A stretch of 20,000 bases of DNA from the IMG/VR virus record IMGVR_UViG_3300032087_004917; one strand, written 5' to 3'. Position 1 is the first letter of the stretch. Each line of letters opens with the position of its first letter. Positions 1,196 through 19,631 of the stretch are shown here, one piece after another. Position numbers and translations under genes: made by a program. This stretch comes from an uncultured virus (IMG/VR IMGVR_UViG_3300032087_004917). Lineage: Duplodnaviria; Heunggongvirae; Uroviricota; Caudoviricetes. The notes beneath the pieces were generated by a model. It was given only the letters and a program-made list of their open reading frames with translations. It made no database searches and was not told the DNA's origin.

Positions 1196-1414
1196 ATGAG
1201 ATTGAACCCCAAAAATAGGCACGGAAAGCATATCATCAACATTCACGGTGAGCGTGAGGTTGTGAAAGAGGAGCGTCCTGCCGCTTTTTCTGACACTTTA
1301 GACTCAGACGTTGAATCTGGTGATGTGGCTGATGTGATTATTCGTCAAAATCAAATCATCAACCGCGCACTGAGAAGGACTTTCAGATCGCGGATTGCAC
1401 GAAAGGCAATCTAA
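1196..1414 (+). CDS. Hypothetical protein (72 aa, basic C-terminus)
   Basis: GGAG SD before the ATG; stop lies 1 nt before the next ATG (1416). Confidence 0.7.
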   Translation: MRLNPKNRHGKHIINIHGEREVVKEERPAAFSDTLDSDVESGDVADVIIRQNQIINRALRRTFRSRIARKAI

Positions 1415-1415
1415 C

Positions 1416-2588
1416 ATGGCAGATAAAAACGATGATGTCTTGGGTGATCTCCTTGATCCCAAGAAATTGCTTGAGCAACTTCGTGAATGTGAAACAAAGC
1501 AATTTAAAAACGCCATCGATCTTCTGCAAGAATGTGAAGAGCGTCACCGTCGAAACGAAAAGAAGTTATCTCGCCTGACAATCGCCGCCTCTGCTGGCGG
1601 TGCTTTGGTCGGTCAAGAAGCAGTCAAAGAAGCAGGTGCAATTGTTGAAACACTCGACTCTGTTATCTCTGGCGATGTATCCGCTATTACAGACGTAGCC
1701 GAAGGTGCTGGATTTGATCCGGCATCCATTGGTTTGTCCGTTGACGAAAATGGTAACGTTGTTCTTCCCGGTGGATTCTTTGGTGGTGCTGGTGGTGCAG
1801 GTGGTAATGGTTTTGGCAACTTAGGCGTAAATCCAGAGAAAGCAAACCCAACCACAGAGGACGAAGAAGACGCTACCGACGAGGACGAAGAAAAAGGTAA
1901 GAAAGAGGAAGAGGAAGAAGAGGGCGAAGAAGAGGAAGAGGAGGAAGAGTCCGAAGAGGAGGAAGAAGAGGAGTCCGAGGAGGAAGAGGACGAAGACGAA
2001 GAAGAGGATGAGGAAGAGGACGAGGAAGAGGACAAAGAAGAAGAGGAAGAGGAAGAGCAGGAAGAAGAGGAAGAGGAGCAGGAAGAGGAAGAGCAAGAAG
2101 AACAGCAAGAACAAGAGCAGGAACAGGAGCAGCAGCAAGATACGCCTGAGCCTGACCCACCCTCATCCGACCAATCTGCAAGTATTCCGAGTCTCCCTGA
2201 CAATACACAAGAAACGAAACTTATGGATTTCTTTGAGGATGTTGCCCTTACAGAAATGGAGCAGGCAATAGAAACAATCATCCAAGACACACCCGACCTC
2301 CTTGAGAACCTGCCTGCAATCTTGAGATCAAGAAAGCCCGACGCTGGTGAGGTGATTGTTGGTGATTACGATACGAACGATCCGACCCCGCCTATCGTGA
2401 TTGATGAGGAAGTGGATGTCATGGAGGAGGTCATTGAGACTGTCGAGGTTCCGGCTTCACCTATCGACCCATATATCCCACCGATTGCGGGTGTTCCGAT
2501 TCCTGAGCCGGGGGTGCTTAGTGTCGTTATTTTAGTGGCTTGGTTCTGTGCCGGTTGGTCATTCAGACGCAGGCGAGATAAGGATTAA
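1416..2588 (+). CDS. PEP-CTERM sorting-domain protein with long poly-Glu/Asp/Gln low-complexity region
   Basis: C-terminus VPIPEPGVLSVVILVAWFCAGWSFRRRRDKD = PEP motif + TM helix + Arg cluster; Gly-rich and roughly 95-aa acidic tract; ATG 1416 preferred over TTG 1395. Confidence 0.85.
   Translation: MADKNDDVLGDLLDPKKLLEQLRECETKQFKNAIDLLQECEERHRRNEKKLSRLTIAASAGGALVGQEAVKEAGAIVETLDSVISGDVSAITDVAEGAGFDPASIGLSVDENGNVVLPGGFFGGAGGAGGNGFGNLGVNPEKANPTTEDEEDATDEDEEKGKKEEEEEEGEEEEEEEESEEEEEEESEEEEDEDEEEDEEEDEEEDKEEEEEEEQEEEEEEQEEEEQEEQQEQEQEQEQQQDTPEPDPPSSDQSASIPSLPDNTQETKLMDFFEDVALTEMEQAIETIIQDTPDLLENLPAILRSRKPDAGEVIVGDYDTNDPTPPIVIDEEVDVMEEVIETVEVPASPIDPYIPPIAGVPIPEPGVLSVVILVAWFCAGWSFRRRRDKD
1855..2140 (+). 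repeat. Imperfect GAR/GAY/CAR trinucleotide low-complexity tract encoding poly-E/D/Q
   Basis: Purine-rich gaagaggaa... run; produces the poly-Ser/Leu/Lys shadow ORFs in other frames. Confidence 0.9.
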
Positions 2589-2803
2589 ACCTTAGAATCC
2601 AAGTAGTCTGCCATTCCGTCAAGATTGTCAACGGCAATAGCAACTTTGTCAGTCCACCATGATGGTAGCATGGCTTCATTTGGAAGTTTGTCTAATTCCA
2701 TTTGCATTGTCATCAATGCCTTCGCTGCAATTTTGACTTTATTTTTTGCAGAGGCGACATCAGTATGTCCGTCTTCACTCAGTTCTTTGGGATCAAGTTT
2801 CAT
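2585..2803 (-). CDS. Small T4-like phage protein (EDGHTDVASAK...LPSWWTDKVA), possible internal head protein
   Basis: ATGA overlap with the upstream gene; N-terminal ..LSE site; resembles, from recollection, helical LPxWxxxK modules of marine T4-like phages. Confidence 0.75.
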   Translation of the reverse strand: MKLDPKELSEDGHTDVASAKNKVKIAAKALMTMQMELDKLPNEAMLPSWWTDKVAIAVDNLDGMADYLDSKV

Positions 2804-4500
2804 ACGGTGTCTCCTACCTTTTTGGCTGCACCACGAATTTGTCGAATCATCAACTTTCGTGGTTGAATTTGTTTCTTTAAGTAAAGTTTTGCGTCTCCGG
2901 TATCCGTGGGACCGTATACTATTTCTTTAGATCTACGGTCGATCACATATGTCATCGCTCTTTCATCAAGGCTCATTTTAAGACTCTCAAGTTTCATCAC
3001 CTTTTTCATTGCATTAAACAAATCTTTAGGTTTGAACTTGTGAACATTGTCCACTCTTGCCTCATAGTCACCATAGCCTGAAAGATTCATGTCATTCAAG
3101 GCATCTGCGATCTCTTGCTTGGCTCCCCTTTTCAGTCCTTTGATCATGCTCTCCAGATCACGGGCTATCATGGTTTCGTCAAGTTGCACATCTTCATCAA
3201 CATGAGCATAAATTCTGTCTAATTCAGCCACCATATTATCAAAATTTTTGAGGACTCTTTCCGCGCGTTCTTTATTCTCGCGGTCTAATTTCGCTTTGTT
3301 CCTTGGTAAATTGTTATACGCTCTTGCAAGCCTGTCCAACTTCCTCTCCACCTTGTCCAACACTTTATCAAGTTTACCCAAGATTGATTCGTTGATATCC
3401 TCAAACACTTTCACCATCAAAAAATCATATTCACTTTCAAACCTGTTGAACTGTCGCCTACTGTTGAACGTGACATCAAACATTTTACCTTTTGCTGCGC
3501 TCACATCTTTGGCATCAACGAACATGTTCTTTTTCTTTGCATCTCGCATATCAGAGTTATTTTGGTTTGGTCTGCCAAAAAATGCGACCCGTGCCTTGAT
3601 AACCTCTTCACCAAGTTGCACATCCTCAATCAGACCATCTTTCTTAGCAAACTTCTTTGCTGAGTCTGTGTCCATGTGTGTTCCGTAGTATGCCGACACC
3701 TTACCCCGTTTGTCGAAGATTGCCATCATCACTCCGGCTTGGCTGGATGGACGGGAAGTCTTGATGGGAATGACGGCAAAAGTGCCACCATCGGCTGCGG
3801 GTGCAGAGAAACTATACTCTGATGGCTTGGTCATTTCAAGTTGATTTCTTGTGTCTCTGCCAATCTTGGTTGCAGGCTTACGTTTCCCACTACCCATAGG
3901 ATTGAACGGAGCCATCGCTTCATCGACTTGCACATCCTCTTTCATCGCATCAACATGACGCTTTGCAACGAAGAAGTAGGAGCCTTTGTCTTTAGGGCTT
4001 TTTGCACCGACAAATCTATCACCATCAAACGGGTGCAAGTCAATGACCTGTCCCTTTTTGAACATCTCTTTTGGCATACCCGACTTTTGTGATTTGTTGT
4101 ATCCGGTTCTCAGTCTGCCTTTCATCCACTTACTGCTGGTAGGTGAAATGTCAAACAAACTTTTCTCTTCGTCAATCTGCACATCCTCGTTCATCAACTT
4201 ACGGAATTTTTCACGCGAGGCGGCAGTTTTGAATTGTAAAAGAATTTCTTTATCATCTTCTTCACGACCGATGACAAGATTAGCCATTTGCTTTTGCTTC
4301 TTGCGACCAGCCGGAGTCTCGTCATCAAGAACCTTTTGCATTTTCTTTGCCATGGTGGAGGTCTTGGGCAATGCCATCTTGATACCAGACACAGGAGCGA
4401 CACCGGGAGATCTTGCACGATAGGTCGTACGTCGCGTTATCTCGCTAAGAGGATGGTTGATATTGTCCAATGCACGCTGAATGATTGCTTTTTTATCCAC
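2800..4500 (-). CDS. Modular Lys/Arg-rich polyprotein with repeated EDVQ(I/V/L)(D/G)E linkers, putative protease-processed internal head protein
   Basis: Likely GTG start at 4500 (GGAG 7 nt upstream; MDKKAIIQRALDNINHPLSE); linkers MNEDVQIDEE, MKEDVQVDEA, LIEDVQLGEE, FEDINES, VDEDVQLDET, SLDER. Confidence 0.8.
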   Translation of the reverse strand: MDKKAIIQRALDNINHPLSEITRRTTYRARSPGVAPVSGIKMALPKTSTMAKKMQKVLDDETPAGRKKQKQMANLVIGREEDDKEILLQFKTAASREKFRKLMNEDVQIDEEKSLFDISPTSSKWMKGRLRTGYNKSQKSGMPKEMFKKGQVIDLHPFDGDRFVGAKSPKDKGSYFFVAKRHVDAMKEDVQVDEAMAPFNPMGSGKRKPATKIGRDTRNQLEMTKPSEYSFSAPAADGGTFAVIPIKTSRPSSQAGVMMAIFDKRGKVSAYYGTHMDTDSAKKFAKKDGLIEDVQLGEEVIKARVAFFGRPNQNNSDMRDAKKKNMFVDAKDVSAAKGKMFDVTFNSRRQFNRFESEYDFLMVKVFEDINESILGKLDKVLDKVERKLDRLARAYNNLPRNKAKLDRENKERAERVLKNFDNMVAELDRIYAHVDEDVQLDETMIARDLESMIKGLKRGAKQEIADALNDMNLSGYGDYEARVDNVHKFKPKDLFNAMKKVMKLESLKMSLDERAMTYVIDRRSKEIVYGPTDTGDAKLYLKKQIQPRKLMIRQIRGAAKKVGDTV

Positions 4501-4780
4501 GGGTGATCTCCAGAATTCTTTGAATTTGTGCCTCACAAGCCGCGACTCGTTTTGCACCATCCCACACGATATAGTCTCGTTCAGGGTTTTTCTTTAAATT
4601 GTAAAGAATGGGAAGCATGAGTTTTTCAAGATTTGACATCTTGGACTTCACATCATCGGATACACCAGAAACCTCACTCACCTCTACCTCATCGGCAAAG
4701 GTAAAATCAAAGTCACCAAATGTGTCTTGTGAGAGAAGAGCCTCAAACTCTGCGTCGATTTTGTCTCTATCGAATGCCAT
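4493..4780 (-). CDS. Conserved T4-like phage hypothetical protein
   Basis: Acidic N-terminus with FDFTF and a P.LYNLKKNPERDYI.W motif recalled from environmental T4-like phages; late-promoter-like motif 5 nt upstream of the ATG. Confidence 0.8.
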   Translation of the reverse strand: MAFDRDKIDAEFEALLSQDTFGDFDFTFADEVEVSEVSGVSDDVKSKMSNLEKLMLPILYNLKKNPERDYIVWDGAKRVAACEAQIQRILEITRG

Positions 4781-5546: not shown

Positions 5547-6128
5547 TTATTTAGGAGGGATCGGTCCAGCATTGTGAATGTGTTGAAGGAAGCGTTGAAC
5601 TTTTTCTTTACGCTTTCTGACAATGACCTCCCATACCTTGTCCCAGTATTTCTTGGTCGCCTCTTTCTTGTGACCATTGGGACCACCATTGTGCATTCGT
5701 GCCATTTTCTCAAGAGTGACAACACCGAGTCTTCGTTCTGTGGCATAGATCTTGAGCCATTCGATCACGACCTGTCGAGCATACTCTTTGTTAAAACAAT
5801 CTTCATATTTGCCACCCAAATTTGATCTTTTGTTTACGTCTGTCCAGTAGATACGCCAGATCTGATATGCCCCGATTGCATTTCCATTGTCTCCGATGGC
5901 TCCGCTCTGACAATTTGATTCGACTTCACATATGGCATCGAGCAGAGCATCAAGGTCATCTTGCATGATGCCGGGAATGACACTTTCTTTGTCTTCTTCA
6001 ATGACAAAGGTGACTTCTGGAGCAGGTGGTTCAGCGAACGTAGGGATCTCCACAATGGGTCCGGTGAAGAGTTTGACGAAGCATCCTACGGTAAATCCAA
6101 CGACGATAGAGGCAAACGTATTGTGCAT
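5547..6128 (-). CDS. Invertebrate-type (destabilase-like) lysozyme with N-terminal hydrophobic anchor; candidate endolysin
   Basis: LDAICEVES, G.YQI...YWTD, YEDC, ARMHNGGPNG, T..YWDKV match i-type lysozyme motifs; N-terminal FASIVVGFTVGCFV; AAGGA SD. Confidence 0.85.
   Translation of the reverse strand: MHNTFASIVVGFTVGCFVKLFTGPIVEIPTFAEPPAPEVTFVIEEDKESVIPGIMQDDLDALLDAICEVESNCQSGAIGDNGNAIGAYQIWRIYWTDVNKRSNLGGKYEDCFNKEYARQVVIEWLKIYATERRLGVVTLEKMARMHNGGPNGHKKEATKKYWDKVWEVIVRKRKEKVQRFLQHIHNAGPIPPK
5548..5554 (-). promoter_or_regulatory. Putative late promoter (CTAAATA), near-leaderless
   Basis: cCTAAATA-attac-ATG(5542); same 5-nt spacing as at 4786. Confidence 0.55.
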
Positions 6129-6268: not shown

Positions 6269-8470
6269 TTAGGCGGCGATAAAATCAGTAATTTTTTCGA
6301 CCAGCGGACGGCACGCGGCACGACTCTGGAGTGACTTGACATAAGCCGAACGAATCTTTGCCTTTGAAGCATCATCTTCAAGATTGTCCATCGCATCATC
6401 GACATCCGTAGCGGCATTGTCGTAGACAACGAACGCGGCATCCCAACCTTCTCGGGCTGCCTTCTCTTGAGACAGAAGACCCCAACGTTCCTTCTTCCAA
6501 GTCTTGACGTTTTGATCACGTTGGGCTGGCGTGCTGGAATACTCCAACATGTTTTGACCCTCTCGCTTGCCAGTCATGAAGAAGTTGATGACCTTCGAAC
6601 CAGTCTCTCCACGAATCCAATCGCAGATAGCCATCTGTCCAATGTTGCGACCGTATTCGCTTTGGGCAGTGTAGGATCGACGGGAGATCGGATCGGTCAC
6701 CACGACGGCTTTGCTGCCACGTTCCTGCACACCGTGATCGCCTTGACCATCGGTGAGGAAAATGATGTTACCGACTTCGGCGTTGGTGCGAGCCATGAGC
6801 GACTGGTGGGTGAACTTGGAGATCGTGAGAGCAGCACCAAGAGGAGTCGATCCAAGATTGAACCCGTCAAGAGTGAACATGCGATAGTCATCAGCAGACT
6901 CACCAAGGAAGAGAGCCGTGGTCACATCTTGATTGAAAAGATTGTTTCGCACAGAAGTGTCAAGAATCTGCAAAAGTTTAGCATTGTTTTCGATAGTGCC
7001 ATCCTTGAAGACGACATCGTATTCGCTGGTGAAAAGGTAAACTTCGCAAGGGACATTGACCTTCTTGCAGAACATCGCCAGCGTAACGGCTTGCTTGATC
7101 GTCGATTGACACTTGCCATTCATCGAACCCGACCAGTCGATCACCACGGTCAGAGCGTGGTTCTTGCCATCGGGACGCTGTTGGGTCTTGAGGAAGATGT
7201 CTTCCGTCAACTTGTAGTTAACAAGTTTGTTCATATCGAGCCGACCAGACTTGGCGACTTGAGTACGACGGGCGATGTGTGCAGCCTGCTTACGAGTGAA
7301 AGCCATCGCCATAGCGTTGACAGTAGGACGAAGATCAGCAGCAGAATCGGACAACTTTTTGATCTTTCGCTGGCTGATGTGTCCACGGGAAACCGAATCG
7401 GCGAAACGCTTGCGAGTCTCGGAGACAGGAAGAACAGCCTCGTCGGTGATACCAGTGGGCATCTTGTTGCTGCCGACATCTTTGTAGTAAGAGGAATCCT
7501 CTTTACTTGCCATTTCTTGAAGATTCTTTGCCATGGCATCGGCAGACTTCGCCATCACATCGCTCCAGCCATCGCTGGCGGCATTGGTTTCTTGATCGCC
7601 TTCGGCAGTGGAACCATCGTCTTCGCCTTCGGCAGCGGATTCCATAGTGCCTTCGCCTTTAGTCTCGACACCATCCTCACCGCCTTCGCCAGTCTCGTCA
7701 CCTTGCTGGTCACCAGTATCGCCGGAGGCATTGTTTTCGGTTTCGTCACCCTCGTCGCCAGTATCTTGTGACTGCTCGCCAGCAGATTGTCCATCCTCGG
7801 AACCTTGGGGAGCATCGTCACCAGACTCGACATCGCCGGAGTCGGATTCTTCTTCGGGTTGATTTTCTTGATTCTCGTCACGCTGCTGCTTCATCAAGTC
7901 GAGAACGTCGGCAGTCAACTCCAAGACCTCTTCGTAAGTCTCGGTGTTCTCTGCACGCTCGACCAGCGTACGCTCTTCGTTGGTGAACATCACTTCGCCA
8001 TTGTAGGCTTTCGCATTGAGATTCATGCGGTCAAGGAACGAACGCTCGTTGATGTCCTCGTCCTCACCGACTTCGAAGAGATTCATCTCACGCATCTCGG
8101 GGTAGCCAGCAGCATAGTCCGAAACCAAACCGCGATATTTGCGTTGGATCAATCGGTCGATGCGAACATCTTCGACAACGTTGAGGGCATTCATCGCAAC
8201 CTGTTCGGGAACGCCAGCATTTTTTGACAAAGTTTTTACAGTTTGAAGAAGATCATCGTCGATAGTATGCAGAGCATGGGACACTTCGTGACCGAGCAAC
8301 ATGTCCGTCAATGATTCGCTCATGTTTTCCCACACTGGCATGATCAACTCACGCGACTCGACATTGAACGATGCCGTAGGTGCGGACGAATCAACACGAA
8401 CCGAAATGTTTTCGGTAGCCAAAAGTCGGGCAAAACCAGAGGAAACGGTAGGAATGGACAGGTTGCTCAT
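6269..8470 (-). CDS. CobT-like protein: N-terminal HExxH metallopeptidase-like domain, acidic linker, C-terminal VWA domain
   Basis: LGHEVSHALHT, NVVEDVRIDR; long D/E/G linker; SGRLD; MIDAS DWSGSM...GSTP...LTDG. Confidence 0.9.
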   Translation of the reverse strand: MSNLSIPTVSSGFARLLATENISVRVDSSAPTASFNVESRELIMPVWENMSESLTDMLLGHEVSHALHTIDDDLLQTVKTLSKNAGVPEQVAMNALNVVEDVRIDRLIQRKYRGLVSDYAAGYPEMREMNLFEVGEDEDINERSFLDRMNLNAKAYNGEVMFTNEERTLVERAENTETYEEVLELTADVLDLMKQQRDENQENQPEEESDSGDVESGDDAPQGSEDGQSAGEQSQDTGDEGDETENNASGDTGDQQGDETGEGGEDGVETKGEGTMESAAEGEDDGSTAEGDQETNAASDGWSDVMAKSADAMAKNLQEMASKEDSSYYKDVGSNKMPTGITDEAVLPVSETRKRFADSVSRGHISQRKIKKLSDSAADLRPTVNAMAMAFTRKQAAHIARRTQVAKSGRLDMNKLVNYKLTEDIFLKTQQRPDGKNHALTVVIDWSGSMNGKCQSTIKQAVTLAMFCKKVNVPCEVYLFTSEYDVVFKDGTIENNAKLLQILDTSVRNNLFNQDVTTALFLGESADDYRMFTLDGFNLGSTPLGAALTISKFTHQSLMARTNAEVGNIIFLTDGQGDHGVQERGSKAVVVTDPISRRSYTAQSEYGRNIGQMAICDWIRGETGSKVINFFMTGKREGQNMLEYSSTPAQRDQNVKTWKKERWGLLSQEKAAREGWDAAFVVYDNAATDVDDAMDNLEDDASKAKIRSAYVKSLQSRAACRPLVEKITDFIAA

Positions 8471-8476
8471 GTCTCA

Positions 8477-8485
8477 AGTGTACCA
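8477..8485 (-). promoter_or_regulatory. Extended -10 promoter, leaderless
   Basis: TGGTACACT-tgagac-ATG(8470); identical 9-mer and 6-nt spacing at 11170. Confidence 0.65.
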
Positions 8486-8518
8486 TAAATCCCCCGGCAG
8501 GATAGCCCATAGGGTCAA

Positions 8519-8829
8519 AAAACTGACAGAATGTGTCAGTTGACGCAAAAAACAACAAAAAGTGTCGCAAAACGCTACAAAAACGCCGACCGTGGCGTAA
8601 AACTTGCATTTTACGCTGATTTTACGACATTTTAACGTTTTTGACGCAAAATGATACCTTTGTGTCGCAAAAATCAGATTCCGGCTCCAACTGTGTCTTT
8701 TTGACACACCCTGACGCAAAATACGAGTAAATTTCACTTTTCCCGCCACGGTCGGCGTTTTTGTGGCGTTTTGCGACAAATGAACGTTTTTATGCATTTT
8801 TTACGCCACTGACACATTCTGACAGTTTT
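8519..8829. repeat. Nested inverted repeats plus an iteron-like TGNCGYAAAA array in the divergent intergenic region
   Basis: 8519-8540 vs 8808-8829 inverted (21/22 identical); 8563-8597 vs 8744-8778 inverted (34/35); about 10 TG(A/T/G)CG(C/T)AAAA copies; phased A/T tracts. Confidence 0.9.
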
Positions 8830-8843
8830 CTTGAGAAACAGGC

Positions 8844-8872
8844 TTGAGGGCTGGCGGGTTTTCGATTAAACT
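8844..8872 (+). promoter_or_regulatory. Sigma70-type promoter, leaderless
   Basis: TTGAGG-17 nt-TAAACT-ttgggc-ATG(8879), no SD. Confidence 0.65.
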
Positions 8873-8878
8873 TTGGGC

Positions 8879-10231
8879 ATGAGCAAATTGAACAAATCAC
8901 GACGCGAGTGGCTTGATGCCCTTTCTGCTACTGGTTCCGTGCGATTCGTCACGGACGAGGCTCTGGTCGTTGCTAAGGCAAACGGCTGGAATGGCATCCC
9001 TCTCTGGTTCCGTTCCTCTGGCTGCGAATACAAAAAAGGTCGCGGCTTTTGGGACATTTCTTCTTACGTCAATGGCGAGGCTGCTCCTGCTGCTCCCGCT
9101 CCTGCTCCCGTGACTCCTGCTCCGGCGGTCGAGTCTGTTCCTGCTTCCCCCGTTATGCAAATGGCGGGTGCGGAAGCACGAATCGTTCCCGAAAAAATGG
9201 AAGGCTACGTCAAGTGGGGACACCACAAGACCGTCGCCACGATTCTCGCCTCTGGTGAGTTTTACCCCGGCTATGTGACTGGTCTTTCCGGCAATGGTAA
9301 GACCACCATGATCATGCAGGCTGCTGCCGATGCCAACCGCGAAATTTATCGCGTCAATATCACCGCCCAAACCGATGAGGACGATCTCATTGGTGGCTTC
9401 CGTTTGCTCAATGGTGATACCGTGTGGGTCGATGGTCCCGCTGTCGTTGCCGCCAAAAAGGGTGCGATCTTGCTTCTCGACGAGATCGACCTTGGCGGTC
9501 CTGCCCTCATGTGTCTCCAGCCTTTGCTGGAAGGTAACGGCATCTTCGTCAAGAAGACTGGCGAGTATGTCGTTCCTGCTGCCGGTTTCAATATCTTCGC
9601 CACTGCCAACACCAAGGGTAAGGGCGACGAAACTGGTTCGTTCGCTCACACCGGAATCATGAACGAGGCTATGCTCGACCGATTCCCCGTGACGCTTGAG
9701 CAGCCATATGCCACCGAAGCCACCGAGAAGAAAATTCTCAAAGGAAAATGTCAAAAGTTTGGCGTTGATGTCAAAGCCGAAGAAAACTTTATCGCCGATC
9801 TTGTCTCTTGGGCAAACAATATTCGTAAATCTTACGAAGTCGGTGCTTCGACCGAGATCATCACCACCCGACGTTTGGAGTCGATCATGAAAGCCTTCGC
9901 CATCTTCGGCAACCATGCCAAGGCGATTGAGATGGGTATTTCTCGCTTCGACGAGCAGACCAAAGCCGATATGCTCAAACTTTATGAAAAGATTTCTGGC
10001 GAGCGTGCCACTGCCACCATGGAGGAGGTCATCGACCTCACCCAATCCGCCCGCGTCAACCTCAACGTGCCATATGCTTCCAAGGATGAAGCCAAGGCAT
10101 ACGGAGCCAAGTGGGATGATGTCGAGCGTACTTGGTACACCACTGGCGAGAACTATGCCCAACACAAAGATTTCTTTGACGGTTACAACCCCACCGCCTC
10201 ACAGGAGAACACCAATGCCTGCCCATGGTAA
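8879..10231 (+). CDS. cobS: CobS-like MoxR-type AAA+ ATPase with N-terminal extension and C-terminal DUF5710-like domain
   Basis: Walker A GLSGNGKT, Walker B LLLDEID, ATANTKGKG, LDRF; Pro/Ala linker; C-terminal LNVPYASKDEAKAYGAKWD..W. Confidence 0.9.
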   Translation: MSKLNKSRREWLDALSATGSVRFVTDEALVVAKANGWNGIPLWFRSSGCEYKKGRGFWDISSYVNGEAAPAAPAPAPVTPAPAVESVPASPVMQMAGAEARIVPEKMEGYVKWGHHKTVATILASGEFYPGYVTGLSGNGKTTMIMQAAADANREIYRVNITAQTDEDDLIGGFRLLNGDTVWVDGPAVVAAKKGAILLLDEIDLGGPALMCLQPLLEGNGIFVKKTGEYVVPAAGFNIFATANTKGKGDETGSFAHTGIMNEAMLDRFPVTLEQPYATEATEKKILKGKCQKFGVDVKAEENFIADLVSWANNIRKSYEVGASTEIITTRRLESIMKAFAIFGNHAKAIEMGISRFDEQTKADMLKLYEKISGERATATMEEVIDLTQSARVNLNVPYASKDEAKAYGAKWDDVERTWYTTGENYAQHKDFFDGYNPTASQENTNACPW

Positions 10232-10433: not shown

Positions 10434-10676
10434 ATGCCACGACCAAAAAAGGTTATCGTTCTTCCCGAGTCTCAAATCCAAGACTCACTCACCAACGGTC
10501 GCGTGACTGTTGCTATGCTGGCTACTGCTGCTGGCTGCTCTGTGCCTACCATGCGTAAGCACCTTGCGGAAGCCTATGGCGACCGCATCACCTTCTCCCG
10601 TGGTCGGACTGGTGGCATCACGCTCACCGCTCCCGTGACCACCACCCCCGTGGGCGAAACCCCACTCGCGTCCTGA
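10434..10676 (+). CDS. Winged helix-turn-helix DNA-binding protein
   Basis: Strong AAGGAGG SD; VTVAMLATAAGCSVPTMRKHL HTH followed by ITFSRGRTGGI wing. Confidence 0.8.
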   Translation: MPRPKKVIVLPESQIQDSLTNGRVTVAMLATAAGCSVPTMRKHLAEAYGDRITFSRGRTGGITLTAPVTTTPVGETPLAS

Positions 10677-10695
10677 TCGGGACGTTTGCTCATAC

Positions 10696-10726
10696 GCTGC
10701 CGCAGGGGGAAACCCTTGCGTGCAGT
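10696..10726. other. GC-rich hairpin with GAAA tetraloop (terminator or stabilising stem)
   Basis: CGCAGGGG-GAAA-CCCTTGCG with a ctgc/gcag extension; no U-tract on the plus strand. Confidence 0.5.
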
Positions 10727-10848
10727 ATTCAAAAAAACAACAAAAAGTGTTGTGTATATTGCAAAAAAACAGTGTATGCTAACACGACCCCTATGAGCCT
10801 CTGGTGGGCTAGCCCCCGGTTGCTCTTCCTTCCCCGGAGTAAAAAAAT

Positions 10849-11052
10849 ATGTCAAGTTTGATTCTTTTTCTTTTTCTTTGTTTGATCATCATCGGGCTTC
10901 CTTTCGGATTCATCGTTTCTTTGAATACCCTTTTTGATCTGGGTATCGGATACGGATTCTCCGAGTGGCTTTCTGCAATGTTCATTCTTTGTGTTTTCTG
11001 CTCTCGTCAACTCCCCGTTGAAAAAACAGAAGAAGAAGATACAGAAAAGTGA
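10849..11052 (+). CDS. Small two-TM membrane protein
   Basis: GGAG SD; two hydrophobic segments; LNTLF motif; acidic tail. Confidence 0.75.
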   Translation: MSSLILFLFLCLIIIGLPFGFIVSLNTLFDLGIGYGFSEWLSAMFILCVFCSRQLPVEKTEEEDTEK

Positions 11053-11169
11053 AAAGTTTTTTGAAAAATCGATTTTCAAAATTTTTTTCGGGGCAAAAAT
11101 CTGACCTAGACCCCAATCAAATTTTTCTGGCTTTTTTCTTCCTTCTCTAGTTTCTTGGTCTTTTATTTC

Positions 11170-11178
11170 TGGTACACT
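11170..11178 (+). promoter_or_regulatory. Extended -10 promoter, leaderless
   Basis: TGGTACACT-atccac-ATG(11185); AT-rich upstream region with a near-palindrome centred on ATCGAT near 11070. Confidence 0.65.
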
Positions 11179-11184
11179 ATCCAC

Positions 11185-11586
11185 ATGGCAATCACCAATC
11201 ACAATCTTTATCTTTCCGCTCCGACCAACTCTTCATACGGATACCAAGTTGCCCGTTTTCGTTTTCAACACCATTCTGAAAAGGGTAAAGTTTTTATTCG
11301 AACTTACTGCGATCAGTTTGGTGACAACGAGCAAGAGTTTAATCTTCACCGTGACTACATGCAGAGTCAATATCACTGGGCAATCTCCGATGCATTGAGA
11401 CAGGAGTTTGATGGCATCGCAAATGAAATGGTGACACAAGAAGCGGCAGAGTCAGACGATGGTGACTACAATGAATACACCGCTCGGAAGATTTGGAATG
11501 CCCTCGCCAGCCATGGCTGGTCTACGGACATGGGTGAAGTGATCGGAAAGAACGATGAGCGACAACTGGCATTTCAGGCTTCGTAA
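11185..11586 (+). CDS. Hypothetical protein, ARxxW..L...GW family (paralog 1)
   Basis: C-terminal EYTARKIWNALASHGWS. Confidence 0.8.
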   Translation: MAITNHNLYLSAPTNSSYGYQVARFRFQHHSEKGKVFIRTYCDQFGDNEQEFNLHRDYMQSQYHWAISDALRQEFDGIANEMVTQEAAESDDGDYNEYTARKIWNALASHGWSTDMGEVIGKNDERQLAFQAS

Positions 11587-13790: not shown

Positions 13791-13888
13791 ACAATTGGGA
13801 CACTGAATGTATTCTCTTGATGCTCTTTACACTTGGAGTCGCTGCTTTTGTTAGCATCATGCTCGACAGTGATAAGGACAATAAATGA
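13787..13888 (+). CDS. Small single-TM protein (33 aa)
   Basis: ATGA overlaps at both ends; MNNWDTECILLMLFTLGVAAFVSIMLDSDKDNK. Confidence 0.65.
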   Translation: MNNWDTECILLMLFTLGVAAFVSIMLDSDKDNK

Positions 13889-14484
13889 ACAAAATGCGTG
13901 TCAAAAACTTCGATGTAATACCTTGTGATATACAAGTTATTCGTGAGTTTGTGGAGACATGGCATTATTCAGGTAATGTCAATGGACTACGACTGGCACA
14001 ATGTTTTGCTTTATTCAATGGTAAAGATTTGATTGGTGCAATGATCTATGGTTCCTTGGGCATGGCAAACGCATGGAAGAAGTACGGTGAGTCGGAAGCA
14101 GATGTTGTAGAGTTGAGGCGGTTGTGCTGCATTGACGAAACACCAAAGAATACCGAATCGTATTTCATCGGACGCACTCTCAGATGGTTGCGTAAAAATA
14201 CTGGCTACAAGGTTGTTGTCTCATACGCAGATACACACCACGGACATGAGGGTACAATCTACAAGGCATCTAACTTTGAGCATGTAGGTATGACTGCGAA
14301 AGGCAGAATCATCAAGATGGGAGAACGTGAATACCATGACAAAACAATCCGAACCTATTACACCAACAAAGATGGTGTCAAAAAACTCAAACCCTTTGCT
14401 CAAAGAGTAAAGGATGCACTTGAAAGCGGAGAGGCAGAATACATGAACCGTCCGCCAAAACACATTTACCTTTATTCTTTATGA
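13885..14484 (+). CDS. Mom-like GNAT-fold adenine-modification protein
   Basis: WHYS, LIGAMIYG, ELRRL, PKNTESYFIGRTLRWL, VVSYADT..GH.GTIYKASNF motifs. Confidence 0.85.
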   Translation: MNKMRVKNFDVIPCDIQVIREFVETWHYSGNVNGLRLAQCFALFNGKDLIGAMIYGSLGMANAWKKYGESEADVVELRRLCCIDETPKNTESYFIGRTLRWLRKNTGYKVVVSYADTHHGHEGTIYKASNFEHVGMTAKGRIIKMGEREYHDKTIRTYYTNKDGVKKLKPFAQRVKDALESGEAEYMNRPPKHIYLYSL

Positions 14485-14995: not shown

Positions 14996-15242
14996 ATACA
15001 ATAAAAATACCGATCTTGGATTTTCTTTTTTCATTGATGAAAATCATGAAAACAAACCTGCACTTTTTATGTCCGGCGTTGACTGTGAGGAGAAGTCTTG
15101 TGGGTTTACTTTGCATGACCTAAATAACTTTATCAGGTTCCTAGAAGGACAACGTGTTCTTTTGAAAGACCGTTTGAGTGAAGATAAACAAAATTTGCTT
15201 TTTGAAAACGTAAAGGATGAAACAAATGGCGAAAAGAATTGA
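14982..15242 (+). CDS. Hypothetical protein
   Basis: AAGGAG SD; fits the operon packing. Confidence 0.7.
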   Translation: MSGTEYNKNTDLGFSFFIDENHENKPALFMSGVDCEEKSCGFTLHDLNNFIRFLEGQRVLLKDRLSEDKQNLLFENVKDETNGEKN

Positions 15243-15543
15243 CATTACCGAAGAAGATTATGCGATGCTCATGCCCACGGGTGATCGCATTCTGGTGAAG
15301 CGTGACAAGGGTGAAGAAAAAACCGACGCAGGTATTTTTTATGTGAAAGAACAACGCCGCCAAACTGGAATCGTCGTTGCCATTGGTGATGGTGATAGAT
15401 TCGCCGATGGCAAAAGTCGTATCCAACCCGGATCAAAAATTTACTTCTTGGAAGAGGGCTACGTCCCTATCGGTGATTACATGCTCATGCAAGAATCATC
15501 TGTTCTTGGTGTGTTCCACCCAAGCGAAGTAAAGAAAAAATGA
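15226..15543 (+). CDS. groES: GroES/Cpn10-like co-chaperonin (functional analogue of T4 gp31)
   Basis: PTGDRILVKR...EEKTDAGIF...GIVVAIGDG...E..VLG; start 15226 (AAGGA SD) or 15217. Confidence 0.9.
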   Translation: MAKRIDITEEDYAMLMPTGDRILVKRDKGEEKTDAGIFYVKEQRRQTGIVVAIGDGDRFADGKSRIQPGSKIYFLEEGYVPIGDYMLMQESSVLGVFHPSEVKKK

Positions 15544-17508: not shown

Positions 17509-17513
17509 TATCT

Positions 17514-17587
17514 GGTCGCGTAGCATAATTGGATAATGCAACGGACTTCTAATCCGTAGATTGCAGGTTCGAGTCCTGCCGCGACTG
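17514..17587 (+). tRNA. trnR: tRNA-Arg(UCU)
   Basis: Full cloverleaf: GGTCGCG/CGCGACT acceptor, ACGGA-CTTCTAA-TCCGT anticodon arm, GCAGG-TTCGAGT-CCTGC T arm, A20; no encoded CCA. Confidence 0.95.
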
Positions 17588-17593
17588 TTAAAA

Positions 17594-17666
17594 GATCTCG
17601 TAACTCAGTTGGTAGAGTACCGGACTTTTAATCCGAGAGTCGTGAGTTCAAGTCTCACCGAGATCA
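17594..17666 (+). tRNA. trnK: tRNA-Lys(UUU)
   Basis: GATCTCG/CGAGATC acceptor, CCGGA-CTTTTAA-TCCGA anticodon arm, GTGAG-TTCAAGT-CTCAC T arm; no encoded CCA. Confidence 0.95.
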
Positions 17667-18910: not shown

Positions 18911-19011
18911 TGGTCACTGCAATTTTTACACTTGGTGGATTTACGATTGGTTTGATTCTTGGCGTTTGCTTTGGAACAGGGTTTCTTGATGAATACGGAA
19001 AGCGTTGGTAA
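18910..19011 (+). CDS. Small single-TM protein (33 aa)
   Basis: GGAGG SD; TAATG couplings on both sides; MVTAIFTLGGFTIGLILGVCFGTG... Confidence 0.65.
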   Translation: MVTAIFTLGGFTIGLILGVCFGTGFLDEYGKRW

Positions 19012-19631
19012 TGGGCAAACTCAAATATGGTGTTGGAATTTATGACTTGAGAAGTGATCCTAATTACGTCATACAAAAAAAAATTAATGGAAAAGTTTGG
19101 CGATGTCCATTTTACCGTAAATGGCAAGCCATGATTAGACGTTGCTACGCGGAGGAACACCTTCAATATAAACCCTCCTATCGTGATTGCTCAGTCTGTG
19201 AGGAATGGCAAACTTTTTCCAACTTTATGGCTTGGATGAAATCCCAACGCTGGGAGGGAAAGTGTCTTGACAAAGATATTTTGATTCCCGGCAACAAAGT
19301 CTACTCACCCGAAACTTGCGTTTTTGTCACCAATGAAGTGAATGTTTTACTTTGTAATGGCAGACGTTCTTCCAGAAAAGGAAAATATCCAGTGGGCGTG
19401 AAGTCTCATAAAGGTCATAAAAAGTTGAGTGCGGAGATTTCTAGATATGGGAAAACATGTCATCTTGGATATTTTTACACTGCCGAGGAAGCACATGAAG
19501 TATACAAAAAAGAAAGAATAAAATACATCTTGGAGATTGCAGAAAATCTTACAGAAGATGATACCTCTGATGTTGAAAAAACAAGACAAGGTTTGATTCG
19601 TCATGTTAAGGAAGGATCTTTTTTTAAATGA
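19011..19631 (+). CDS. HNH-type homing endonuclease with C-terminal AP2-like DNA-binding domain
   Basis: Y..W..M..RCY, Y..C.VCEEW..FSNF..W, LDKDIL..GNKVYSPETC.FV...N; then PVGV...HLGYF.TAEEAH. Confidence 0.88.
   Translation: MGKLKYGVGIYDLRSDPNYVIQKKINGKVWRCPFYRKWQAMIRRCYAEEHLQYKPSYRDCSVCEEWQTFSNFMAWMKSQRWEGKCLDKDILIPGNKVYSPETCVFVTNEVNVLLCNGRRSSRKGKYPVGVKSHKGHKKLSAEISRYGKTCHLGYFYTAEEAHEVYKKERIKYILEIAENLTEDDTSDVEKTRQGLIRHVKEGSFFK

Follow-up and report, generated by a model that had tools for sequence, protein, structure and literature searches.

Mirror-symmetric putative early promoters with a helically phased activator-like box between the divergent VWA and cobS genes of uncultured T4-like phages

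Among the closest described systems are the promoter-early stem-loop (PeSL) cassettes of the T4-type phages RB49/phi1, PST/T4 and nt-1/KVP40 (PMC2839356, PMC4122927). PeSLs are many and dispersed, carry a terminator stem-loop and a Shine–Dalgarno site, and drive deletions and the formation of mini-circles; a repeated (here putative) sigma-70-type early promoter, AT-rich upstream DNA, a T4-like phage background and recombining copies are features that the locus described below has in common with them. Class I CRP sites of E. coli are described in PMC4132738 as working near −61.5, −71.5, −82.5 and −92.5, and here the likeness lies in a palindromic box, in distance steps of one helical turn and in nearly the same positions. 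Predicted NtcA and Pho sites in cyanophage promoters (PMC3037559) provide a further parallel, namely T4-like marine phages with host-regulator sites upstream of their genes.

The locus compared with these systems is a 408-bp spacer (8471–8878) in the window, i.e. the whole 20,000-nt stretch of DNA that was analysed. The gene to its left (6269–8470, minus strand) encodes a VWA/CobT-like ‘peptidase’ of 733 aa (phrog_459, E 3.9e-125, with a weak CobT_C match) and has a leaderless-type start, and the gene to its right (8879–10231, plus strand) encodes a CobS-like MoxR AAA+ ATPase of 450 aa (phrog_249, E 3.5e-90; AAA_5 and DUF5710) with a small N-terminal alpha/beta domain and DUF5710 at the C terminus. 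The folds nearest to the model of the CobS-like protein were NorQ and CbbQ, its score was far below the cut-off for cobaltochelatase CobS (69.8 versus 558.55 bits), and the VWA protein is likely to be its partner. A strand switch at the spacer, reported in an earlier note on this DNA, was confirmed: the accepted genes to the left of 8470 lie on the minus strand, with the exception of 1395–2588 (+), and the right-hand genes lie on the plus strand.

The phage was considered to be T4-like because its relatives encode gp23 (three of five partial records) together with the T4-type replication genes gp43, gp41, gp59, gp32, gp45, gp44 and a RecA-family (UvsX-type) protein. When 126 proteins encoded by relatives were scanned against Pfam, T4 core genes and no usable host marker emerged, and a search for the host among genome contigs gave two short MAG contigs only, one of them binned as Latescibacterota. 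The sole plus-strand gene to the left of the spacer (1395–2588) encodes a protein with a long acidic repeat and, at its C terminus, a tail resembling PEP-CTERM (13.8 bits, below the NCBIfam cut-off of 16), which may hint at an exosortase-bearing host. Proteins with recurring EDVQ-DE motifs, also visible as 34-bp DNA repeats, are encoded at 3–851 and 2800–4560; they had no family match in profile scans of the window ORFs, and we take them to resemble head-internal proteins with protease sites. Other genes in the window encode a Mom-like DNA modification protein (13885–14484), GroES (15217–15543), tRNA-Arg and tRNA-Lys (17513–17666) and an HNH endonuclease (19005–19631).

The VWA (‘peptidase’) gene and cobS were co-directional in all records of cultured phages that were checked, namely those of cyanophages and a pelagiphage. 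The 206 rows with a cobS match, duplicates included, comprised 79 with divergent genes, 76 with VWA then cobS, 11 with cobS then VWA and 40 with no VWA gene in the stretch. A quick tree of 74 representatives placed 21 of the 22 divergent ones in one group (SH-aLRT 93), which also included four tandem representatives. The set of 62 spacers used for the comparisons was drawn from the 79 divergent rows by removing 10 duplicates or near-duplicates, three rows from a separate AT-rich lineage whose spacer contains an ORF and two rows with no assigned right −10, adding L336 and then dropping three exact duplicates. The −10 anchors on the cobS side (right) were hand-picked from scored candidates, and long-range skew and motif counts were made on six partial relatives.

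Both inverted pairs given in the earlier note were reproduced, the outer pair (8519–8540/8808–8829) being complementary at 21 of 22 positions and the inner pair (8563–8597/8744–8778) at 34 of 35, far above the shuffle maximum. The longest inverted pair with at most one mismatch was 35 bp, compared with maxima of 15 bp in 100 dinucleotide shuffles and 14 bp in the 47 other 408-bp tiles of the window. With a longer reach (8563–8629/8712–8778) the inner pair matched at 55 of 67 positions, and gapped mirror symmetry extended out to the start codons on both sides. Folding of the spacer strand gave z = −12.85, a value reached in 0 of 100 shuffles; neither Rfam nor ARAGORN gave a match within the spacer that would mark a structured RNA or a tRNA, and the T4 late promoter TATAAATA was not found in the window. 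Each outer arm is itself a dyad, again as previously noted. The left box (ACTGWCA-N5-TGWCAGT, 8522–8540) is perfect and centred 48.5 bp upstream of the left −10 (approximately −61), and the right box (8808–8826) has one mismatch and is centred 49.5 bp upstream of the right −10 (approximately −62). Between the boxes, a phased A-tract array (8541–8807) contains six copies of TGWCGCAAAA, at 8541, 8563, 8642, 8663 and 8712 (+) and at 8778 (−). The left arm of the inner pair (8563–8597) includes a GACCGTGGCG-type module, and the 146-bp core enclosed by the two arms (8598–8743) varies in length between relatives.

The earlier note had raised the possibility that the repeats are an assembly artefact. 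This was rejected, since the whole spacer was spanned by one contig piece at flat depth in all four sea-water runs, of which the best-matching may be the window's own source. Letters differing within the spacer in these runs, as seen in contigs, which drop rare variants, were confined to 8678 (four of four runs) and 8724 (one of four). One loose contig end, at 8565, corresponded to a 19-mer common to the spacer (8547) and 10732.

The putative left promoter consists of an extended −10 (TG-n-TACACT, 8477–8485, minus strand) 6 nt before the VWA ATG, with a poor −35 region at approximately 8500–8505. On the right (plus strand), a predicted −35 (TTGAGG, 8844–8849) and −10 (TAAACT, 8867–8872) are separated by 17 bp, match the consensus at 8 of 12 positions and likewise precede the ATG by 6 nt. 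As both ATGs in the window sit 6 nt after a −10 hexamer, the VWA and cobS mRNAs are probably leaderless. A simple consensus scan called neither promoter (one unrelated match versus 0.6 expected), and the promoters are proposed because they are conserved in relatives; by a loose test, a −10-like hexamer, often with a TG extension, lay 6–8 nt before the VWA start in approximately 60 of the 62 spacers. The two core promoters of the window were just 0.48 alike, and their weakness (8/12 on the right, a poor −35 on the left) would suit activator dependence. There was no helical phasing of the distance between the two −10 elements (R ≤ 0.32), and the twin promoters therefore need not face each other. 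Early expression of cobS is presumed from the type of promoter and from background knowledge. The fraction of words present in six RNA runs was 0.09–0.17.

The spacers of some relatives carry additional elements. In L003, L009, L012, L014, L016, L021 and L336, cobS has a 50–70-nt leader with a GC-rich hairpin (5945–5998 in L003) and the VWA gene is leaderless; this arrangement could raise AAA+ over VWA output. A perfect TTGACA occupies the spacer centre in L003 (approximately 5738–5795) and also in L004, L005, L016, L171 and L174, and is followed after 16–17 bp by a −10-like TATTCG without the final T and then by an alternating CG/TG tract and a CCTT-TATA motif. This central element is a candidate pseudo-promoter, small-RNA promoter or Z-DNA-prone tract between the divergent promoters.

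Conservation of the repeats in relatives, which the earlier note had put up for checking, was borne out for the dyad and not for the inner pair, which proved dispensable (see below). The TGWCA-N5/6-TGWCA dyad was present in 28 of the 62 spacers, with two copies in 24, and its density was 2.81 per kb in spacers versus 0.03 in flanks. When sought elsewhere in long records, as the note had proposed, the strict form was confined to the spacer in three of four (these three being 49–123 kb long) and was absent from the fourth. The distance from the dyad centre to the −10 was 37.5, 47.5–49.5, 58.5–60, 67.5–70 or 80 bp, corresponding to positions of approximately −50, −61, −72, −81 and −92 when the hexamer is taken to begin at −12. 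These positions step by approximately 10.6 bp (R 0.98 for class means, reached in 10 of 5000 simulations), part of which could stem from the gain or loss of whole 10-bp repeat units; the −50 class consists of four near-identical spacers and is not a class I peak. Because the dyad position (approximately −61) steps by about one helical turn among relatives, the box appears more in line with a site for an activator, or for a protein that contacts the alpha-CTD, than with a repressor operator. Thus, of the mirror-image operator system originally suggested, the mirror-image control region with a conserved dyad upstream of each promoter was upheld, whereas the position of the dyad suits an activator over a repressor.

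Confinement to one spacer would be odd for a general early-promoter activator. The exact dyad was found in 119 viral loci (L217–L335) representing 84 contexts, a single one of which was near cobS and there lay inside the gene; one protein family may thus have a widespread binding site in it. In several of these loci the dyad was accompanied by matching flanks and A/T tracts. The dyad-binding protein is probably derived from the host, given that the dyad is tied neither to the CobS N terminus nor to the 10434 protein and is found in unrelated viral contexts. In the left dyad of L145, a 99.7 %-identical relative, the 5-bp centre is the reverse complement of that in the window, a candidate micro-inversion or conversion. 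No paper was found with the dyad motif strings (six spellings), and neither locus nor motif was described in the literature found; the portion of PMC7029224 drawn on contains no description of the VWA/cobS spacer region.

A-tracts in the spacer recur with a period of 10.0 bp, the spacer ranking top among 197 windows of the 20 kb with a signal that 0 of 200 shuffles reached. Of 22 spacers, 16 beat all 200 A-tract shuffles, two nearly did so and four did not. Measured from the −10 elements, the A-tract centres clustered at distances of approximately 38, 47, 59, 67, 78, 87 and 98 bp. A signal of at least 0.3 was detected in 50 of 72 divergent loci, compared with seven of 76 VWA-then-cobS loci, five of these seven belonging to the L006/L007 lineage. 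The spacer was the strongest A-tract window in four of six long contigs, tied in one and was not top in one. The arrays are 160–430 bp long, which exceeds what promoter contacts need.

The two arms of a spacer evolve in concert. Over the 40 bp before the −10, the arms of one phage were 0.57 alike, compared with 0.42 between phages (17 representatives); the own-arm excess was positive in 129 of 136 pairs and was reached in 0 of 10,000 permutations. Between L147 and L157 the right arms were identical and there were five left-arm differences, at all of which L157 had the right-arm state, and two promoter alleles occurred on either side among 16 related phages. Paired changes outnumbered anti-paired ones by 38 to 13 (131 site patterns); the corresponding numbers in the window's own five-member group were 0 and 1 of three patterns. 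L006 and L007 carry an inverted VWA block, their promoters lying 2.8 kb apart in direct orientation, and still the promoter pairs match at 25/31 and 24/31, against a cross-phage range of 18–24 in which one cross-phage L006/L007 pair also reaches 24/31.

The inner 35-bp pair, by comparison, is labile and dispensable. Two extra mismatches separated its arms in L137 and L145, L138 and L153 lacked the left arm, L140–L143 had a single module, both arms carried different sequence in L002, and one arm was missing in relatives at 90–93 % CobS identity. Given this lability, and since the L006/L007 promoters match in direct orientation, the conserved thing is the matched promoter pair and not the palindrome. 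To judge from the sequences compared, the long near-perfect arms would largely be products of arm-to-arm recombination. Copying between arms by phage recombination would be the simplest route to their likeness, to which shared selection by one factor adds.

We therefore favour, with a probability of roughly 0.6, the interpretation that the spacer comprises two early promoters set back to back, each with a phased activator-like box, and that recombination homogenises the two. Leaderless transcripts would start at both ATGs through the action of host RNA polymerase, the leftward one encoding the VWA protein and the rightward one its AAA+ partner plus the small genes behind it. A dimeric protein, probably the host's, would occupy the ACTGWCA-N5-TGWCAGT box at approximately −61, on the polymerase's face of the DNA, and aid polymerase recruitment, and the 10.0-bp A-tract array between the boxes would bend or wrap the DNA in phase with both promoters. 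Recombination of the T4-like phage would repeatedly overwrite one arm with the other, so that the cassettes stay alike; the inner pair would accordingly represent a recent recombination product. Co-expression of the two subunits would follow, and balanced VWA/AAA+ expression, as envisaged in the earlier note, is plausible. MoxR hexamers usually take one VWA partner, and matched promoters would therefore mean matched timing, not equal subunit numbers.

It is conceivable, if doubtful, that the spacer serves also or mainly as a once-per-genome nucleoprotein platform, either a replication origin or a host-factor sink, with host proteins (DnaA in many relatives, an IHF-like protein, the dyad binder in the window) assembling on the bent array and negative supercoils generated by the outward promoters aiding opening or loading. 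Perfect TTATCCACA (DnaA) boxes were present in 24 of the 62 spacers, often as an 11-bp tandem and in three cases together with the dyad; in five long records 10 of 19 matches fell in the spacer, the other nine equalling the count of the reversed-pattern control (nine). The IHF-like palindrome occurred at 0.92 per kb in spacers versus 0.011 in flanks, and the IHF consensus with at most one mismatch at 2.2 per kb (all spacers) versus 1.0 (flanks); a Fur-like palindrome, TAAC-N7-GAAC, TATCGGAC and an alternating CG tract were also enriched in the spacers of relatives. The labels IHF, Fur and DnaA are the names of consensus sequences. No phage DnaA C-terminal domain and no HU/IHF domain was detected (five partial records each), so that host proteins are the probable ligands of the DnaA and IHF-like boxes, and the rank of the spacer as top A-tract window in most of the long contigs would agree with a platform. 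The spacer of the window itself, however, has no DnaA box, no IHF consensus and no unusually AT-rich stretch (lowest 30-bp GC 0.27, equalled by 4.7 % of window 30-mers), and no DnaA-trio run was seen, by eye, beside the tandem boxes of relatives. Moreover, L006/L007 divide the array between two distant promoters, and the relatives encode a full T4-type replisome. Cumulative GC skew, a check called for in the earlier note, gave a divided answer: the minimum was at the spacer in G004 and within approximately 4 kb of it in G004, G001, G005 and G006 (partial contigs, in which skew follows the coding strand), but near 11,500 in the window and far from the spacer in G002 and G003. Extended to the uncultured T4-like clade as a whole, the idea of the VWA–CobS spacer as one dedicated hub is similarly tentative; it would be a 10.0-bp bent-DNA scaffold with exchangeable host-protein boxes (DnaA, IHF-like, Fur-like and the TGWCA dyad) between self-homogenising outward promoters, acting as an origin that depends on host factors or as a sink that draws them off the host chromosome. 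T4-like phages are not known to use DnaA.

Autoregulation, in which a phage protein (the CobS N-terminal domain or the HTH-like 10434 or 16591 protein) would sit on both dyads and give equal subunits, is unlikely. Confinement of the dyad to the VWA/cobS spacer in three long records would suit it, as would the N-terminal 65 residues of CobS, for which a confident model has the order helix-strand-helix-helix-strand-strand, a possibly winged-helix-like arrangement; Atlas matches to this domain were uninformative (≤0.79), and a single-sequence model was poor (pLDDT 67.6) and disagreed with the alignment model. The 10434 protein had HTH-type look-alikes at 0.85–0.86, which are leads only. The presence of the dyad nevertheless tracked neither the CobS N terminus nor the 10434 protein, both of which the earlier note had named for binding tests: L001, L144 and L146 (CobS 73–80 % identical, similar N terminus) lack it, L011, L012, L014 and L021 (CobS 48–56 %, different N terminus) have it, and a 10434 homologue was present in the dyad-less L001 and L008 and was not found in the fetched stretches of the dyad-bearing L011 and L012. 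Nor would autoregulation sit easily with the rarity of the exact dyad near cobS among its 84 viral contexts, or with sites at −61 to −92, clear of the core promoter. A packaging start, genome end or DNA-entry site, another proposal of the note, is still less probable. Early-type genes radiate from the spacer, and of the 11 contigs that reach 45 kb or more, seven end no more than 8 kb from cobS versus 2.2 expected (p ~0.0015), but these ends lie at varied distances on both sides, L012 and L013 share a spacer and end differently, and in four of four runs contigs crossed the spacer at flat depth, with no loose ends and no depth step there, a headful pac step being invisible to contig depth. The circular permutation of T4-group genomes (PMC4122927) also counts against a fixed terminus. 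The cobS-proximal ends, seen at different places in L004 and L011–L016, suggest that the region is hypervariable or hard to assemble, or that a packaging start lies nearby. Least credible of all is a phase switch, in which the inner inverted repeats would bound an invertible segment. The 35-bp near-perfect arms, the reversed left dyad centre of L145, modules that by eye look flipped between distant lineages and the larger inversion in L006/L007 would be in keeping with such a switch. Yet the predicted inversion of 8598–8743 left no strand-changing joint in the contigs of four runs (from which rare variants are dropped), and the main match of the core had the same orientation in all seven matching relatives (23 compared). 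Both promoters lie outside the inner pair, so that a flip would switch nothing obvious; an inner arm is missing in close relatives, and no recombinase family was found among the 30 and 34 window ORFs scanned.

After the HTH-like gene, at 10665–10850 and 11050–11178, the window contains another non-coding element that is conserved. One of its hairpins covers the stop codon, and another is terminator-like, with stems that covary; then come an A7-CAGT-n-TAT motif that hardly varies among 19 aligned loci, more hairpins, A/T tracts and a leaderless-type promoter at 11173. A 67-aa ORF (10849–11052) appears to be inserted into this element. The element, which has a 19-mer in common with the spacer (10732 and 8547, respectively), is a candidate packaging or origin site.

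Twin early promoters with phased boxes, as favoured here, would offer a clade-wide picture of how uncultured, abundant T4-like marine phages turn on a widespread and unexplained CobS/VWA pair. The helically phased boxes probably read host state, and they could help to trace the host as well as an undescribed regulator. Should the DnaA and IHF-like boxes of relatives mark an origin or a decoy, they would bear on the start of replication in T4-like phages other than coliphages or on the arrest of replication in the host.

Bacterial oriC and datA are DnaA–IHF platforms. The spacer resembles them as a unique bent-DNA site and, in many relatives, by its tandem DnaA boxes and IHF-like sites, and differs from them in that the window lacks such boxes and a clear unwinding element and that the phage has its own replisome. 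With regard to the MoxR AAA+/VWA pairs NorQ–NorD, CbbQ–CbbO and CobS–CobT, the fold matches NorQ and CbbQ and a VWA partner adjoins; unlike the situation for cobaltochelatase CobS–CobT, no CobN was seen in the window. The CRP box is TGTGA-N6-TCACA, from which the TGWCA-N5/6-TGWCA box of the spacers differs, and a −50 class also occurs among the latter. In cyanophages cobS is a core gene; unlike in the cultured phages checked, VWA and cobS diverge here, and the kind of box (dyad, DnaA, IHF-like or Fur-like) changes from lineage to lineage. With respect to PeSLs, as characterised in the papers cited at the outset, the spacer has two back-to-back leaderless copies, a phased dyad and a 10.0-bp array, and the visible outcome is homogenisation. 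In six contigs of 49–135 kb there were 0–2 further promoter-core look-alikes per contig, unlike the dispersed PeSLs; the window has one further leaderless-type promoter (11173). The one terminator-like match in the spacer (8598–8583) compares with 1.2 expected by chance, and a spacer between divergent genes receives no incoming transcript. Because its copies are not dispersed and the 6 nt between each −10 and its ATG leave no Shine–Dalgarno layout, the spacer is not filed as a PeSL and may, by analogy, be regarded as a two-copy, inverted, leaderless relative of these cassettes.
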